A program made the position numbers and the translations under genes. DNA of 64,000 bases from a bacterium (GTDB lineage Bacteria; UBA8248). Location: positions 2,912,001-2,976,000 of the forward strand of contig OZ242260.1 in assembly GCA_965207065.1 (NCBI GenBank), given 5' to 3'. The notes beneath the pieces are model-generated. The model saw only the letters and a list, made by a program, of their open reading frames with translations, did not search any database and had not been told where the DNA came from. The number at the start of each line of letters is the position of its first letter. Position 1 is the stretch's first letter. Positions 19,404-61,901 of this stretch are shown in pieces.

Positions 19404-20474
19404 ATGGATTTTTCCTTATTTTATATCCTGTATCGTCCCGAAGATATGACCGAGGCGCAGGTCCATGAGGATATGCTCGAAGAGAGCATTCTGGCGGACG
19501 AGTTGGGTTACTCGTGCGTCTGGTACGCCGAGCATCACTTCTCACGCGTCGGGATGATCCCCGACCCCCTCCTCATCTGCGCCGCGGTGGCGCAAAAGAC
19601 GAAAAAAATCCACGTGGGCACGGCCATTTCCATCATGTCGTTTCACGATCCCATAAGGCTGGCCGAGCAGGCCGCCATGGTGGATCTCCTGAGCGGCGGC
19701 AGGCTGGAGCTGGGCATCGGGCGCGGCTCCCAGCCCAAGGAGTTCCAGGGTTTCGGCGCGAAGCCGTCGGAAAGCCGCGAGCGCTTAAAAGAAGGTCTCC
19801 ACATTCTCTCCCGCCTTCTCGAAGGGCAGAAGGTGACGTTCGAGGGCCGGCATCACCAGTGCGCGGACGTGGAAATCTTCCCCAAGCCCCTCCAAAGGCC
19901 GCGCCCGCCCATCTGGCTGGCGGGAACGAGTCCCGAAACCTACACTTATGCGGGCGAGAACGGCTTCAAGGTGATGGCCTCGGCCGGCTTCACGGGGCCT
20001 GAGGTTTATAAGCAAAAGTTCGGGCTTTACGAGGACGCCATCAGGAGATCGGGCGGCGACCCCGCCGGTATCGACAGACCCCTGGTTCACCACATCCACG
20101 TGTGCGATGCGGCGGATGCGGAGGAATGCTTCGACCTCACGGTGGAGGGCGAGGGCGAGTACCTGCGCTACCGGGCGAAGATGAACGAGGTGGAAATGCC
20201 CGAGGATGAGGCGAAGCACCTGAAGCGCAACTGGAGTTATGAGCTGGACGTCGCCGAGATTGTCAGGGGCGGCGGCATCATTGCCGATCCGGAGGCCGTG
20301 GCGGAGGATATCTGCAGGCTGCGCGATGATTATGGGGTCAATCACGTCATTCTGGCGCCCTGGCGCGGGCCGGACCACGCCGCGGTGATGCGCTCGATAG
20401 AGAGCTTCGCCAGTGACGTCATGCCGCTGGTGAACGCCACCGCGCCCGTCGGCTCGGGTGGCAGTCAGTCTTGA
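19404..20474 (+). CDS. LLM-class (luciferase-like) flavin-dependent oxidoreductase, copy A
   Basis: Motifs WYAEHHF, RLAEQAAMVDLLSGGRLELGIGRG and PxQRPRPPIW. Confidence 0.92.
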   Translation: MDFSLFYILYRPEDMTEAQVHEDMLEESILADELGYSCVWYAEHHFSRVGMIPDPLLICAAVAQKTKKIHVGTAISIMSFHDPIRLAEQAAMVDLLSGGRLELGIGRGSQPKEFQGFGAKPSESRERLKEGLHILSRLLEGQKVTFEGRHHQCADVEIFPKPLQRPRPPIWLAGTSPETYTYAGENGFKVMASAGFTGPEVYKQKFGLYEDAIRRSGGDPAGIDRPLVHHIHVCDAADAEECFDLTVEGEGEYLRYRAKMNEVEMPEDEAKHLKRNWSYELDVAEIVRGGGIIADPEAVAEDICRLRDDYGVNHVILAPWRGPDHAAVMRSIESFASDVMPLVNATAPVGSGGSQS

Positions 20475-20528
20475 AGCCTTGAAGGTTTCTTTCTTGTCTT
20501 AAAAATCAGGAGGCGCTTTGTCGTGGGT

Positions 20529-21503
20529 ATGAGCTTTAGTTTGCATCTGGTGCCGGATGACATCCGGGTCGTGGCGGAGCGCTCGAAATACGCCGAGGAC
20601 AACGGATTCGAGCAGGTGTGGATAGCGGAGAGCCATCTCACCTGCCGGGATCACAACATCGCGCTCGCCCTGGCGATCGAGAAAACCTCGCATGTGAAAA
20701 TCGGCCCCGGCGTGACGAACCCGGTCCTGCACGACGACAGCGTCGCGGCGAGCGCCATCGCCACGCTCGATGAACTATCAGGCGGCCGGGTGCTGTTCGG
20801 CATTGGCTCGGGCGATACGCCCGTCTATACGCTGGGCAAGAAGATGGCCCGGCTCGCGCGGATGCGCGAATCCATAGCGGCCATACGCGCGTTCACGCGC
20901 GGCGAGACGGTGGAATACGCCGAGGGCGTGAACGTAAACATGTGGTGTGAGCGGGATATCCCCATCTACACCTCCGCCGAGGGTCCCCGGACGCTCTCCA
21001 TGTCGGCTGAAGTCGCGGACGGCGTCATCGTAGGCTCGGGCGTCTACCAGGAGACGGTGGACTGGGTGATGAAGTATCTGAACGAGGGGATGGAGAATCG
21101 CGACTCCTCTCTGGGCGAGATGGACATCATATTCGGCGCGGTCGTCTCGGTGGATACCGACAGCGTGCGCGCTCGCGAGAAGGTGCGGGCGCGGGTGGCG
21201 AACCGGGCGCACCACAACTTCCGCATGACGCTCGACTCGGTGCCCGACCCGTACAAGCCCGAAATCAAACAACTTCTGGACAACTTCGACGTGAGCAACT
21301 GGCGGGATCCCAAGCACGTGCCGCTCATTACCGACTACATCCTGGACCGCTTCACCATCACGGGAACGCCCGAGGAATGCGTCGACCGCATCCAGGAGAT
21401 CGAGTCCTACGGCGTCAAGAGCATCATGATCGACCCCCCGAACCAGGATTTCGACGAATCTCTCAAAATGTTCACCGAAGAGGTTTTGCCCAAGTGCGTA
21501 TGA
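20529..21503 (+). CDS. LLM-class oxidoreductase, Mer-like (probably F420-dependent)
   Basis: Motifs VWIAESH, GPGVTNP, TLDELSGGR..GIGSGD and GPRTL. Confidence 0.85.
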   Translation: MSFSLHLVPDDIRVVAERSKYAEDNGFEQVWIAESHLTCRDHNIALALAIEKTSHVKIGPGVTNPVLHDDSVAASAIATLDELSGGRVLFGIGSGDTPVYTLGKKMARLARMRESIAAIRAFTRGETVEYAEGVNVNMWCERDIPIYTSAEGPRTLSMSAEVADGVIVGSGVYQETVDWVMKYLNEGMENRDSSLGEMDIIFGAVVSVDTDSVRAREKVRARVANRAHHNFRMTLDSVPDPYKPEIKQLLDNFDVSNWRDPKHVPLITDYILDRFTITGTPEECVDRIQEIESYGVKSIMIDPPNQDFDESLKMFTEEVLPKCV

Positions 21504-21551
21504 CCGCATCCGGGGCGTAATCGACCGCCTTATTCATAAGAGGAACCCAAC

Positions 21552-21950
21552 ATGGCGCTGATACCCGAATCTCATGCCGGCATTCTCGACACAAAGGCCC
21601 TCCTGTACCTGGGCACCCAGAACAAGGACGGATCCCCCCAGGTCTCTCCCGTATGGTTCGGCACCAATGGCGACATCATCGAGGTCAATTCGGCCAAAGG
21701 CCGACTGAAGGACCTCAACATGCGCGCGAGGTCCAAGGTTTCCATCGCCATCGTCGACCCCGAAAACGCCTACAGGTGGGTGGGGATTCAGGGCACGGTG
21801 GTGGAGATTACCGAAAACGGGGCGGAAGAGCATATCGACGCCTTGGCGAACAAGTATCTGGGCGTGGACAGCTATCCGAACCGCCAGGCGGGACAGGTGC
21901 GCGTCATCTACCGCATCCGGGCGGACAAGGTGTTCACGATGGGTGCGTAA
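21552..21950 (+). CDS. PPOX-class (FDOR) probable F420-dependent oxidoreductase
   Basis: Motifs DGSPQVSPVWF, GRLKDLN, DPENAYR and IDALANKYLG. Confidence 0.88.
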   Translation: MALIPESHAGILDTKALLYLGTQNKDGSPQVSPVWFGTNGDIIEVNSAKGRLKDLNMRARSKVSIAIVDPENAYRWVGIQGTVVEITENGAEEHIDALANKYLGVDSYPNRQAGQVRVIYRIRADKVFTMGA

Positions 21951-21997
21951 GACGCCCTGCGCACCGGATTACCATGTACGGGACGGAGACCTGATAG

Positions 21998-23053
21998 ATG
22001 AAATTCTCGCTTTTCTACATTCCTGCCTGTCAGGAGGGCGAAAGCTACAAGCACGAGTTCGACCAGTTGATCGAACAATGCGAGGTGGCCGACGAACTCG
22101 GCTACGAGGCCGTGTTCCTGGCCGAGCACCACTTCTCCCGCGTGGGCATGTGCCCCGACGCCCTGATGGTCGCGCTCGCCATCGCTCAGAGAACCAAAAA
22201 GATCAGAATCGGCACCGCCATCTGCATCATGCCGTTCCACAATCCGGTGCGCTTGGCCGAACAGGCCGCCCTGGTCGACGTGCTGAGCGGCGGGCGTCTG
22301 GAACTGGGCGTCGGCAGGGGTTCCCAGCCCAAGGAATTCCAGGGCTTCAACATCTCCCCCTCCGAGAGCAGAGAGAAGATGCAGGAGGGCCTCGAGGTGA
22401 TGACCCGCCTGCTGGAGGGGGAATGCCTCACCTTCCACGGGAAGCACTACAGCTGCATCGACGTGGAGATTTTCCCGAAACCCATCCAGAAGCCGCGTCC
22501 TCCCATCTGGCTGGCCGGCACGAGTCCCGAAACATACGTCTTCGCCGGCCAGAGGGGGTACAACATCATGGCGTCGGGCACCTTCAAGGGGCCTGACGTA
22601 TATCTGGAGAAGATGGAGTTGTTCAACGAAACCGTGCGCAACCGGGGCGGCGACCCGAGTGTTTATCCCGCCCTCATGGCGCACCACGTCCATGTGTGCG
22701 ACGACCCCGAGCACGCCTGGCGGCAGATCGAGCCCTCCGAATCGTGGTATCTCTCCTACCGCAGCGCGGTGAATTCCATCGAGATGCCGCTCGAGGAGAA
22801 AGAAGCCCTCAAGCGCAACTGGAGCTACGACGTCGACATCCGCCAGGTCATCGAGGGGGGCGGCGTCATCGGCCCGCCGGAGAAGGTGATCGCCGACCTG
22901 AAGCGGCTCCAGACGGAGTTCCGGGTGAATCACATCATGATCTTCGTGCTGCGCGGCATCGCCCAGGACGAGGCGATTCAGTCGATAGAGCGGTTTGCGA
23001 AAGAGGTGATGCCCGCGTTCGCCGAAGAGCGCGCGGCGAGTTCAAGCGAATAA
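21998..23053 (+). CDS. LLM-class flavin-dependent oxidoreductase, copy B (paralog of 19404..20474)
   Basis: Same motifs as copy A, including AEHHFSRVGM, GRGSQPKEFQGF and LKRNWSY. Confidence 0.92.
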   Translation: MKFSLFYIPACQEGESYKHEFDQLIEQCEVADELGYEAVFLAEHHFSRVGMCPDALMVALAIAQRTKKIRIGTAICIMPFHNPVRLAEQAALVDVLSGGRLELGVGRGSQPKEFQGFNISPSESREKMQEGLEVMTRLLEGECLTFHGKHYSCIDVEIFPKPIQKPRPPIWLAGTSPETYVFAGQRGYNIMASGTFKGPDVYLEKMELFNETVRNRGGDPSVYPALMAHHVHVCDDPEHAWRQIEPSESWYLSYRSAVNSIEMPLEEKEALKRNWSYDVDIRQVIEGGGVIGPPEKVIADLKRLQTEFRVNHIMIFVLRGIAQDEAIQSIERFAKEVMPAFAEERAASSSE

Positions 23054-23077
23054 CATCGGTTTCGAGGAGAACGGAGA

Positions 23078-23677
23078 ATGTGGATATCCCCATTAAGGCT
23101 GAATGACGCCCAGGAGCCCGCGCGCGGGATTCTCGAGGGCATCCGGGCGAAACGGGGCGCCGTGCCCAAGCTGCTGCTCACGATGGCGCGCAGGCCCCAG
23201 GTCCTGAACGGACGCCAGACGATGAACATGGCCGTCCACGGCGGGAATTCGACGCTGGGCCAGAGGCGCGAGGAACTGATCTCCTACTACGTGGCCACCA
23301 TCGGCGGGTGCTATGGCTGAACGATGAACCATGGCCAGGCTTTCCGTGCTGAAAGCGGCGACGACGTAACGCTGGCCGACGTGGCCACCGTGGTGACGGA
23401 CAGGGACAATTCCCCGGTGCTCGACGATGCGGACAAGACGATGCTCGCATTCGCCGAAAAACTCACGTTCGACCACTACGCGATGAGCGAGGCGGACCTG
23501 GACGCGCTACGCGAGGCGGGCTTCTCGGATGAGAACGTGCTGGACATCATCGGTTCCGTCTCGTACCGGAACATGAGCAACCGGCTGAACCTGGCGCTCG
23601 GCCTCGATGCCGTCGAACCCGAAGGCCCGGACGAGTTGATGGAGGTGGTGCGCTTCTCCCGGACCGCTCGGGCTTAA
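23078..23677 (+). CDS. AhpD/CMD-like peroxidase-related protein, probable selenoprotein (TGA 23318-23320 = Sec)
   Basis: ORFs 23078..23320 and 23324..23677 are in the same frame and join as ...IGGCYG-U-TMNHG..., matching the family CxxCxxxH motif. The second half carries AFAEKLT...LREAGFSDE...NRL. Confidence 0.85.
23334..23359 (+). promoter_or_regulatory. Putative bacterial SECIS hairpin
   Basis: GCC-AG-GCTTTC-[CGTGCT]-GAAAGC-GGC starts 13 nt after the in-frame TGA, with G at the second loop position. Confidence 0.65.
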
Positions 23678-23799
23678 GAGACATATATCCGTTTGCCGGC
23701 CGAGCAAGTCCGGGCCGGTGATTATCAGGCAAAAAAGTTTGCCACCGTTCATTTGCGGCGCGCCCAGGCCGCGAAACAAAGCAGAAAGGAAGAGATTCC

Positions 23800-24570
23800 A
23801 TGTCAGAGCTCACCATCCGTCCGCTGAACTGCGGAACCATTCACACGGATTACTCCAATATGGTGTATTGGACGAACTTCGGGACGAAACTGGAGATTCC
23901 CTCGTTCATCTACATGATCGAGGGGGCGAAGGACCACGACGGCAAGGACGTGAAGGTCGTGGTCGACACCAGTTTTCTGGACCCCGAGCGCGGCGGCGCC
24001 CCCTGGCCCGCGAGCCGGGAGCCCGGCCAGGGCGTTCGCGAACAGTTAGAGGGCGCGGGCTGGAAGCCTGAGGATGTGGACATCCTCATCCTCACGCACT
24101 TGCACTGGGACCACTCCCAGAACTGCGACCTGTTCACCAACGCGATCAAATACGTGTGGGCGGAGGAGCTTCAATACTCCATGTGCCCGGTCGCGCTGCA
24201 ATCCAAGCCCTATGACGCGCCGATCCACCCCAACACCCGCTGGCCGGTGATCGCGCAGCAGGGCATCATCTTCGAGCCGATCTGGAAGGACAATACCGAG
24301 ATCGTGCCGGGCGTCACCTACTTCCACACGCCGGGCCACACGCCGGGGCACTGCTCGGTCGCCGTCGAGACGCGCGTGGGCACCTACGTCATCGCCGCCG
24401 ACGTCATCCAGATCAACGAAGGCCTGGAGCGCCGCGTTCCCGCCGGCCAGATGTCGAGCATGCGCGACGCGATGGATTCCATCCATAAGTGCATCGAGCG
24501 CGCCACGAAGGAGGAATACATCCTGCCCGGCCATGAAATCTCGGTGCTCGAGAAGGAAGTCTACCCGTAA
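23800..24570 (+). CDS. Metallo-beta-lactamase fold hydrolase, AHL-lactonase-like
   Basis: Motifs THLHWDH, HTPGHTPGH, AAD and PGHE. Confidence 0.9.
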   Translation: MSELTIRPLNCGTIHTDYSNMVYWTNFGTKLEIPSFIYMIEGAKDHDGKDVKVVVDTSFLDPERGGAPWPASREPGQGVREQLEGAGWKPEDVDILILTHLHWDHSQNCDLFTNAIKYVWAEELQYSMCPVALQSKPYDAPIHPNTRWPVIAQQGIIFEPIWKDNTEIVPGVTYFHTPGHTPGHCSVAVETRVGTYVIAADVIQINEGLERRVPAGQMSSMRDAMDSIHKCIERATKEEYILPGHEISVLEKEVYP

Positions 24571-24624
24571 GAGCGGATAACGCTCGGCGCCAAGAGCCGA
24601 GTGTTTGCAAAGGGAGGAATCAGG

Positions 24625-25002
24625 ATGGCGATGAGCGAGCGGGGCAGGGCCTTGTACGAGGAGATGAAGGCGGCGCGCGGGTTTATCTACCCGGCGTATG
24701 AACTCCTGTGCGAGGTGGACCCCGAGCTATTGGAGAACTACGAGAACCTCAAAAACCACATCATGAAGAAACAGGGCCCCTTTCACGAGAAGTACAAGGA
24801 GCTCTTCATCGCGGTGGCGAGCGCCTCGCGCAACCCCTCTGATACCGAGGGCATCAAGAACCACTTGAAGAAAGCGCTGCAGCTCGGCGCGACCGTCGAG
24901 GAGGCGACGGAGGCCCTCGAGTGCATGCTGCCCCCCTGCGGGATGACGGCGCTCGTGGCGGGCTGCACGCAGCTCAAAGAAGTGATCGACGAAGGGTATT
25001 AG
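24625..25002 (+). CDS. Carboxymuconolactone decarboxylase (CMD) family protein
   Basis: KYKELFIAV...HLKKALQLGATVEEATEAL. GGGAGG RBS upstream. Confidence 0.85.
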   Translation: MAMSERGRALYEEMKAARGFIYPAYELLCEVDPELLENYENLKNHIMKKQGPFHEKYKELFIAVASASRNPSDTEGIKNHLKKALQLGATVEEATEALECMLPPCGMTALVAGCTQLKEVIDEGY

Positions 25003-25023
25003 AGCAAGGCCGAAAGTGAGCCG

Positions 25024-25060
25024 ACCGGGGGAGTGCGCGACGCTCCCCCGGTTTTTGTTT
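25024..25060 (+). terminator. Intrinsic terminator closing the LLM operon
   Basis: accgggggag...ctcccccggt followed by ttttgttt. Confidence 0.8.
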
Positions 25061-25217
25061 GTTATTTGCGACCGAAGAGGGAGCGATTGCCGAGCGTGGG
25101 GGTGCGATGGTTTTGTAGCCGGACAGGCGCAGGGGACTGTCCGCTGCTTCCGCCTGCTACAAGGTGAAAACAGGTATCCGTCATGCTTTCATCTCGGGTT
25201 GCGCAGATAACATAATA

Positions 25218-25236: not shown

Positions 25237-25256
25237 TTAATCGGGAGGGACACTCG

Positions 25257-25697
25257 ATGAGGCTCACCGTTCAGACAGACTATGCACTCAGGATGATGAT
25301 GCAACTGGCTTGCCGTACTGATGGCCTGGTGACGATCCACGAGATTGCGGAGCGGTACGGGATATCAAAGAACCATCTGGTGAAGGTCGCGCACAGGCTG
25401 GGCCGCGCGGGGTTCATCGAAACGATCCGGGGCCGAAGCGGCGGCCTGAGGCTCGCCAAGCCGGCGGAGGAAATCTCCGTCGGGACAGTGGCGAGGCACA
25501 CCGAACAAGGCAGCGCCCTCGTCGAGTGTTTTCCGGGCGGAAGCGGAAAGTGCCTGGTCAAGCCGCACTGCCGGCTCAAGAGCGTTCTGGCCGAGGCGCA
25601 GGAAGCCTTTTTCACCGTTCTCGATCGCTACACCATCCACGACCTGGTGAAACGCAACCCCGGACTGCTCGCCTTGCTTGTCGGAGACGCCGCATGA
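25257..25697 (+). CDS. nsrR: Rrf2 family regulator, NsrR-like
   Basis: Motifs MRLTVQTDYALR, SKNHLVKV and RGRSGG, and three Cys (ECF...C....HC). Confidence 0.85.
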   Translation: MRLTVQTDYALRMMMQLACRTDGLVTIHEIAERYGISKNHLVKVAHRLGRAGFIETIRGRSGGLRLAKPAEEISVGTVARHTEQGSALVECFPGGSGKCLVKPHCRLKSVLAEAQEAFFTVLDRYTIHDLVKRNPGLLALLVGDAA

Positions 25698-61815: not shown

Positions 61816-61901
61816 GCCCGGGTGGTGGAATGGTAGACACTAGGGACTTAAAATCCCTTGGCCGAGAGGCCGTGCCGGTTCGAGTCCGGCCCCGGGTACC
61901 A
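61816..61901 (+). tRNA. tRNA-Leu (anticodon TAA)
   Basis: Acceptor stem GCCCGGG/CCCGGGT-A-CCA, D-arm TGGTAGAC, anticodon arm AGGGA-CTTAAAA-TCCCT, long variable arm and GTTCGAG T-loop. Confidence 0.96.

Follow-up and report, generated by a model that had tools for sequence, protein, structure and literature searches.

AhpD-like proteins with selenocysteine (Sec, U) in a C-x-x-U motif were reported in 2005 from the Sargasso Sea as a family assigned to COG2128/TIGR01926 (PMC1088965). In the selenoproteome table of the Global Ocean Sampling (GOS) survey this family is the fourth most abundant, with 299 sequences (PMC2398784), and it is listed with one Sec in reviews of 2022 and 2026 (PMC9312934, PMC13188914). 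Here we analyze an AhpD-like gene at positions 23078-23677 of the forward strand of a 64,000-nucleotide stretch of contig OZ242260.1 (the window, in whose coordinates positions are given unless a contig is named). A first-pass annotation, made from the letters of this DNA alone, had proposed that an in-frame TGA in the gene encodes Sec, and had stated correctly that CxxU variants of AhpD-like proteins are known. The gene is a new example of the family described in 2005, and it comes from a lineage already known to be rich in selenoproteins: in the database BSepDB, metagenome-assembled genomes (MAGs) labelled Nitrospinota are among the ten bacteria with the most selenoprotein genes, 48-54 each (PMC13326102).

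The window gene shares with this family, also referred to as AhpD-like 1 (COG2128/YciW), the protein model, a C-x-x-U motif with one Sec, the existence of Cys homologues and a SECIS-like hairpin (SECIS, Sec insertion sequence) after the UGA (PMC1088965, PMC2398784). It differs in that its own group carries C-Y-G-U-T-M-N-H-G, occurs in records of Nitrospinota and Nitrospinaceae, lies in an operon with LLM, PPOX and lactonase-like genes, and has two overlapping hairpins after the UGA. For a related protein, AhpD of Mycobacterium tuberculosis, a proton relay of Glu118, Cys130, His132, Cys133 and His137 has been described; the underlying pattern, Glu-x11-Cys-x-x-Cys-x3-His, is given for this protein and for PA0269 (PMC3141380). 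The second cysteine, Cys133, is reported as the exposed one that cross-links to AhpC (PMC6626918).

A single reading frame interrupted by one TGA

The locus consists of 199 codons followed by a TAA stop, and is broken only by the TGA at 23318-23320. An open reading frame (ORF) of 80 aa that ends in this TGA (23078-23320) and a second of 117 aa (23324-23677) lie in a common frame, and nothing separates them other than the TGA and an ACG codon (23321-23323). Read through, they give a product of 199 residues containing GG-C-Y-G-U-T-M-N-H-G, with U at codon 81. Coordinates and translation thus bear out the earlier description of two ORFs in one frame that are split by TGA-ACG and join into a protein of about 199 aa. 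The features of the gene are as follows.

23078-23677, forward strand: coding sequence of the putative AhpD-like (TIGR01926) selenoprotein, assigned by its TIGR01926 score and by the ratio of nonsynonymous to synonymous change (dN/dS) on both sides of the TGA
23064-23069, forward strand: Shine-Dalgarno-like GAGGAG, 8 nt ahead of the ATG at 23078, read directly from the sequence
23273-23275, forward strand: codon of Glu66, 12 residues before Cys78 and thus at the spacing of the Glu of the AhpD proton relay; at least 90% conserved (n=20) and aligned with a Glu of PDB 6k40
23309-23311, forward strand: codon of Cys78, first residue of C-x-x-U, invariant in 20/20 sequences of alignment A1 and TGA in the paralogue group
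23318-23320, forward strand: in-frame TGA, predicted Sec (U81), conserved; the contigs from runs X1, X3 and X7 have it as well
23330-23332, forward strand: codon of His85, the H of C-x-x-U-x3-H, invariant in 20/20 sequences

We are highly confident that 23078-23677 is one AhpD-like gene whose TGA is decoded as Sec, and that a split of the kind found in existing annotation is wrong. The expectation that gene callers would divide the gene proved right: in the protein collection the close relatives appear only as C-terminal fragments of 109-154 aa (15 of 26 matches). The value of the present result therefore lies mainly in annotation. These public fragments lack the active site, which is consequently lost from the catalogues of a selenoprotein-rich and ecologically important lineage. 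The description of the gene as a 'hidden' selenoprotein holds for its annotation and not for its family, since the latter is already catalogued as a selenoprotein family.

Conservation of the TGA, selection and Sec machinery

We performed a six-frame search of 61 genomes, namely the genome carrying the window (G000) and 60 relatives. Each of the 27 rows at 59-99% identity to the query contained exactly one in-frame TGA. These rows covered 21 of the 22 genomes of the same genus, the exception (G018) being a 79% complete genome, and included two further genera, one at 74-75% and the other at 59% identity. Translation of 40 loci yielded 26 orthologues, 8 paralogues, four distant C-x-x-U proteins and two C-x-x-C proteins. 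C-Y-G-U was found in 26/26 translated orthologues and U-Y-G-U in the 8 paralogues. In alignment A1, made as the first-pass annotation had recommended, the U column was occupied by Cys in all 8 Cys-type homologues. The terminal stop codon was itself TGA in 11 of the 26 orthologues, indicating that TGA continues to signal termination in these organisms and that the genetic code is unchanged; a code in which TGA is a sense codon was therefore rejected.

Comparison with four orthologues of the same genus gave dN/dS values of 0.13-0.20 on the 5' side of the TGA (codons 1-80) and of 0.12-0.16 on its 3' side (codons 82-199); the remaining three of the seven comparisons, made with orthologues from another genus, were saturated in dS and gave no ratio. 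Pairwise synonymous difference among the 24 gap-free orthologues (L041 and L048 were excluded owing to indels) dropped about three-fold, from 0.28-0.40 before the TGA to 0.11-0.12 in codons 81-95, and then recovered, which is the pattern expected of an RNA element that overlaps the coding sequence. Just after the TGA, codons that are rare in this neighbourhood have become fixed: CGT accounts for only 5 of 80 Arg codons in the six genes nearby, but codon 90 is CGT in 39 of the 40 distinct sequences.

The genome, a single contig of 4.48 Mb that is 96% complete, contains the complete Sec machinery for which a search had been suggested. The gene for tRNA-Sec (selC) at G000:C1:690478-690570 scored 75.9 bits against a cut-off of 47 and was called SeC, with anticodon TCA, by ARAGORN, while selA (579 bits), selB (386 bits) and selD (334 bits) all scored over their curated cut-offs. 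The selD gene itself carries an in-frame TGA. Within the window, a sub-threshold match to the tRNA-Sec model was seen at 61816-61897 on the forward strand (40.2 bits against 47), and probably represents a canonical tRNA of the kind that has a long variable arm.

Contigs assembled from run X1, which is possibly the source of the assembly, and from runs X3 and X7, which belong to other studies, span the whole stretch with the same TGA. The X3 and X7 contigs show 16 differences each, none of them between 23276 and 23418; neither TGC nor TGT was seen in place of the TGA, either of which would have pointed to an assembly error.

The locus thus shows what is usually looked for computationally in a bacterial selenoprotein gene, and the TGA almost certainly encodes Sec, as had been proposed at the outset; the conserved TGA, the Cys homologues, the synonymous constraint after the TGA and the Sec machinery all speak in favour of it. 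Selenium insertion at U81 is accordingly a prediction from computational criteria. Two results fit this reading less well. RNA contigs of run X15 (23082-23291 and 23441-23622) touch both halves of the gene without bridging the TGA, and DNA carry-over is possible in this run; for these two reasons they are no proof of transcription or of read-through. In addition, the match of the protein to the Pfam CMD domain, described below, is marginal (23.2 against 23 bits).

Were the TGA to terminate translation, the locus would be either a decaying pseudogene or two small genes of 80 and 117 aa. Gene callers do treat it as terminated, and public collections hold a 117-aa fragment for close relatives. 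Nevertheless, the TGA occupies the same codon in every orthologue, the most divergent having 59% identity, and likewise in 23 rows of paralogues, purifying selection acts on both halves in one frame, and the catalytic motif C-x-x-[U]-x3-H would fall across two pieces. Inspection by eye revealed no Shine-Dalgarno-like sequence ahead of the ATG at 23324, and a full Sec machinery is at hand, so that we consider termination very improbable. Slightly less probable again is that the UGA is read through by other means, with a near-cognate Trp or Cys inserted or under a reassigned code. SelB-independent UGA read-through does occur in bacteria, as is generally known, but the use of TGA as the terminal stop in 11 of the 26 orthologues argues against it, as do the classic Sec/Cys pair at the U column and the presence of a complete Sec pathway alongside many other genes with TGA at the Cys positions of redox motifs. 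That the TGA is a misassembled or misread TGC or TGT can be practically dismissed, given that the same TGA is found in 21 genomes of the genus and in other genera, and that the contigs from X1, X3 and X7, the last two belonging to other studies, show no difference at 23318-23320.

Protein family and active site

With Cys in place of U, the protein scored 108.8 bits against the NCBIfam model TIGR01926 ('peroxidase-related enzyme'; cut-off 81.8), and is thus a member of this family; in the six-frame search of the genome the same model gave 101 bits for the window gene. The Pfam CMD domain (PF02627) was matched over residues 40-114 with 23.2 bits (E 6.9e-05), which just reaches the gathering threshold of 23. 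Three further models showed distant similarity (E 1e-6 to 4e-14) at scores well below their cut-offs, namely the YciW-related (seleno)protein model NF053654 (45 against 310 bits), NF041238, AhpD_rel_CFYUT (27.6 against 175 bits), and TIGR04030 (53.2 against 233 bits). The window protein is therefore similar to these families, yet a member of none of them.

Comparison with proteins of known structure showed full-length sequence homology, over about 160 residues, with PDB entries 6k40, 3c1l, 2pfx, 2prr and 2oyo (E 1.6e-18 to 6.5e-13). All are Cys forms whose physiological substrates are mostly unknown, and their CxxC...H aligns with C78, U81 and H85. In alignment A1 (n=20), C78, the U column (where U is shown as C) and H85 do not vary, and E66 is shared by 90% or more of the sequences. 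The AhpD-like core, Glu-x11-Cys-x-x-Cys-x3-His, is therefore present as E66, C78, U81 and H85.

The spacing of this core, with Cys or Sec at its third position, is identical to that described for M. tuberculosis AhpD (PMC3141380), and the predicted Sec occupies the place of the nucleophile reported as exposed in that protein, Cys133 (PMC6626918). There are differences as well. Little similarity is seen outside the motif, no ahpC lies beside the window gene, and the motif, which is described as C-terminal in M. tuberculosis AhpD (PMC3141380), is found at residues 66-85 of 199 in the window protein. By analogy with the exposed second position of M. tuberculosis AhpD, Sec81 would attack an oxidised partner or a peroxide. 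Cys78 would then resolve the adduct to form an intramolecular selenenylsulfide, which an upstream reductant would reduce again. We propose both the substrate and the reductant by this analogy.

Two overlapping hairpins after the UGA

For insertion of Sec, a stem-loop in the mRNA, within about 40 nt 3' of the UGA, would recruit SelB loaded with Sec-tRNA(Sec), so that the UGA at 23318-23320 could be decoded as Sec instead of stop. The consensus for the bacterial SECIS, as given in a figure legend of a recent review, has an apical loop of 3-9 nt on an upper stem of 4-16 bp, with a G in the first two loop positions, a distance of 16-37 nt between UGA and loop, and an energy of -7.5 kcal/mol or lower (PMC13188914, Fig. 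2 legend). We found two candidates in the window gene, here called hairpins A and B.

23334-23359, forward strand: hairpin A, -10.6 kcal/mol, in agreement with all four bSECIS constraints
23330-23348, forward strand: hairpin B, overlapping A, in which CAUGG (23330-23334) pairs with CCGUG (23344-23348) and encloses a loop of 9 nt; its pairs form in 199 of 200 cells in the 40 sequences compared

Hairpin A is the one that the first-pass annotation had put forward as the SECIS. It exists as described there, and when the 48 nt that follow the TGA are folded it is the structure of lowest energy. It consists of a 3-bp lower stem (23334-23336 with 23357-23359), an AG bulge, a 6-bp upper stem (23339-23344 with 23351-23356) and the loop CGUGCU (23345-23350). 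When compared with the consensus used by bSECISearch, as that legend gives it (PMC13188914), it agrees in loop (6 nt), upper stem (6 bp), the position of the G (second in the loop, followed by U), spacing (24 nt) and energy. Its role as SECIS stands in part: the four constraints speak for it, while the other candidate overlaps it and hairpin A is not conserved across the family.

Several observations count against hairpin A. Its stability is not exceptional, with a z score of -0.41 for 48 nt (66 of 200 dinucleotide shuffles folded as well) and of -0.95 for 63 nt (29 of 200). Of 2000 synonymous resamplings of codons 82-101, 60% over 48 nt and 47% over 63 nt gave folds no less stable than that of the real sequence. 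The stability of the hairpin was for this reason rejected as evidence; what exceeds chance in this sequence is the conserved in-frame TGA, the Cys in homologues and the suppression of synonymous change just after the TGA. Furthermore, hairpin A is stable only in orthologues of the same genus (15 of 19 CxxU sequences, -8.6 to -10.8 kcal/mol). It has -2.7 kcal/mol in orthologues of another genus, and its energy is positive in L048, the orthologue at 59% identity, and in all 21 UxxU paralogue sequences. RNAfold of L048 by itself gave a 7-bp version of hairpin A slipped by one base.

These comparisons were made with alignment A3, which contains 40 distinct sequences (19 CxxU and 21 UxxU). The relatives in it were collected by a degenerate DNA pattern that included the TGA, and from the 59 distinct segments that it matched, 8 were dropped as chance matches to unrelated records; the pattern matches were mostly MAG records titled Nitrospinota or Nitrospinaceae. 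A peptide pattern with Cys/Sec columns, used for the narrower alignment A2, found no relative. Hairpin A was paired in 76.9% of the cells of A3, compared with 68.9% in shuffles and 37-51% in slid controls, and four sequences showed one compensatory change, from G-C to A-U. The arms of hairpin B are formed by CAYGG of the His-Gly codons and CCGUG of the Phe-Arg codons; four of its five pairs never vary among the 40 sequences, which therefore offer no covariation. In the window gene this hairpin has -3.0 kcal/mol and departs from three of the four bSECIS constraints.

Other genes of the genome provide a further comparison. In all seven other AhpD-like genes with a single TGA, a short stem carries a loop of four bases at nt 24-27, counted from the U of the UGA, and this loop is GGUC in six and GGCC in one. 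Three peroxiredoxin (Prx)-like selenoprotein genes have AGGU at nt 20-23. On the same scale, the window gene has G-U of hairpin A at nt 29-30 and AGGC of hairpin B at nt 20-23, and we therefore regard 23330-23359 as the probable SECIS region. The SECIS of Escherichia coli fdhF has a GGUC loop. The loop of hairpin A, CGUGCU, differs from it, and from the GGUC and GGCC of the other AhpD-like genes too.

An alternative is that the functional SECIS is hairpin B and that hairpin A is a competing fold specific to the genus. This is a credible reading, from which we nonetheless lean away. In its favour, hairpin B pairs almost without exception across the CxxU and UxxU sequences, and at its position the distant CxxU homologues L057, L058, L059 and L064 have unambiguous hairpins of 7-9 bp, and some UxxU paralogues, read by eye, have hairpins of 7-8 bp with GUC or GGUC loops. 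The AGGC in its loop lies where the three Prx-like genes have AGGU, and in the UxxU paralogues hairpin A is unstable while B has about -6.6 kcal/mol. On the other hand, hairpin B of the window gene has no G in the first two loop positions, a spacing of only 14 nt and little stability, and its loop is without any G in the orthologues from another genus. Its pairs are nearly invariant, and its arms coincide with codons for conserved residues. Synonymous change in the orthologues is constrained as far as codon 94, a position past the end of B but within A, and the one compensatory change favours A over B. We favour hairpin A as the likely SelB-binding element of the window gene, because of its fit to the consensus, the constraint reaching codon 94 and the compensatory pair.

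A third pairing was proposed by RNAalifold for the 40 sequences, between the Tyr-Gly codons before the UGA and the same CCGUG, with one compensatory change in a single sequence. We did not adopt it because the rest of the structure was weak (consensus energy -6.08 kcal/mol). An Rfam scan of 22900-23800 gave one chance match to a snoRNA (E 0.8) and was uninformative either way; we know of no bacterial SECIS model in Rfam.

Gene neighbourhood and possible function

The window gene lies fourth in a putative operon on the forward strand, whose members and borders are listed here.

20523-25002, forward strand: putative six-gene operon, gene order conserved in relatives, including another genus
20523-21503, forward strand: LLM class oxidoreductase, mer-like, under cut-offs
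21552-21950, forward strand: PPOX class F420-dependent oxidoreductase (TIGR03618, 96.3 bits against 79.05)
21998-23053, forward strand: second LLM class protein (Pfam Bac_luciferase, E 9.7e-64; NCBIfam LLM models all under cut-offs)
23800-24570, forward strand: MBL-fold hydrolase resembling lactonases, under cut-offs
24601-25002, forward strand: second CMD-domain protein (Pfam CMD, 37.1 bits against 23)
25023-25063, forward strand: intrinsic-terminator-like site, a strong hairpin with a 13-bp stem and a T-rich tail, assigned by its match to the consensus alone (shuffled sequence would yield 3.6 such sites, and 3 were found)

The second LLM gene is directly upstream of the orthologue in 26/26 loci of relatives, and the MBL gene is downstream in all 23 loci that extend past the 3' end of the gene, those of another genus included. 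Neither neighbour was found in any of the 22 loci that hold only the UxxU paralogue. The genome also contains the F420 biosynthesis genes cofH (396.6 bits against 374.1) and cofD (315.6 bits against 257.45) at G000:C1:415752-419958, suggesting that the organism plausibly makes F420.

The operon (20523-25002) contains no gene of the AhpC-TSA/peroxiredoxin (ahpC) type; Prx genes are found elsewhere in the genome. Without a peroxiredoxin gene in the operon, linkage to ahpC is missing and a classical AhpC-AhpD pairing is not supported by the context. One could speculate, with low confidence, that the selenoprotein serves as a dedicated selenol/thiol redox partner in a conserved F420- or flavin-dependent oxidation pathway, made up of the other five products of the operon, and not as an AhpC adaptor. 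In such a pathway it might act on the LLM enzymes' peroxy or hydroperoxide intermediates, or on one of their products, as a reductase. With the same low confidence, Sec insertion in this genus may be tuned by competition between two mutually exclusive hairpins, the family-wide hairpin B and the more stable, genus-specific hairpin A. If the redox-partner proposal were true, the UxxU paralogue would be a diselenide-capable form of the same chemistry. The locus goes slightly past the textbook picture in its operon with F420/flavin-type oxidoreductases, its two competing hairpins and its UxxU paralogue.

One further gene was observed on each side of the cluster. A third LLM-type ORF of 356 aa (19404-20474) lies just upstream; its counterparts in relatives are 51-55% identical to the LLM protein encoded at 21998-23053, and at its 3' end there is a weak terminator-like site (20473-20489). 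Downstream, 25254-25697 encodes an Rrf2-family regulator (TIGR00738, 127.4 bits against 73.3) that is closest to the RirA and NsrR models, under their cut-offs, and is found in the same place in the loci of 6 relatives.

Paralogues and other selenoprotein genes of the genome

A search of the genome with TIGR01926 gave 12 matches, of which 9 have TGA at the C-x-x-[U] column, and one further weak match also has a TGA. Single TGA codons are present in 7 Prx-like matches, in one SelW/Rdx-like match and in selD. The genome is thus rich in predicted selenoprotein genes, with at least nine AhpD-like genes that have TGA at the CxxU/UxxU column. One AhpD-like gene, about 60 kb before the window, combines C-x-x-U with a GGUC hairpin.

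The UxxU paralogue is located at G000:C1:1639618-1640184 on the forward strand and has 43-51% identity. It contains two in-frame TGA codons, 9 nt apart in the mRNA as UGA, within GG-U-Y-G-U-A-M-N-H-G, and only hairpin B follows them. This form is conserved in 24 distinct 180-nt segments and in the 23 rows with two TGA codons in the search of 61 genomes, across several genera (various relatives among L049-L056 and L067-L120). We did not find a UxxU form of the AhpD-like family in the literature searched or in the review tables.

Two variants were noted among the orthologues. In L041 (genome G008) an in-frame deletion of 8 codons, away from the C-Y-G-U motif, leaves 192 codons. The genome G015 contains two copies of the orthologue, at C3:31036-31632 and C1:3328474-3329070, with 97% and 95% identity, and both carry the TGA.

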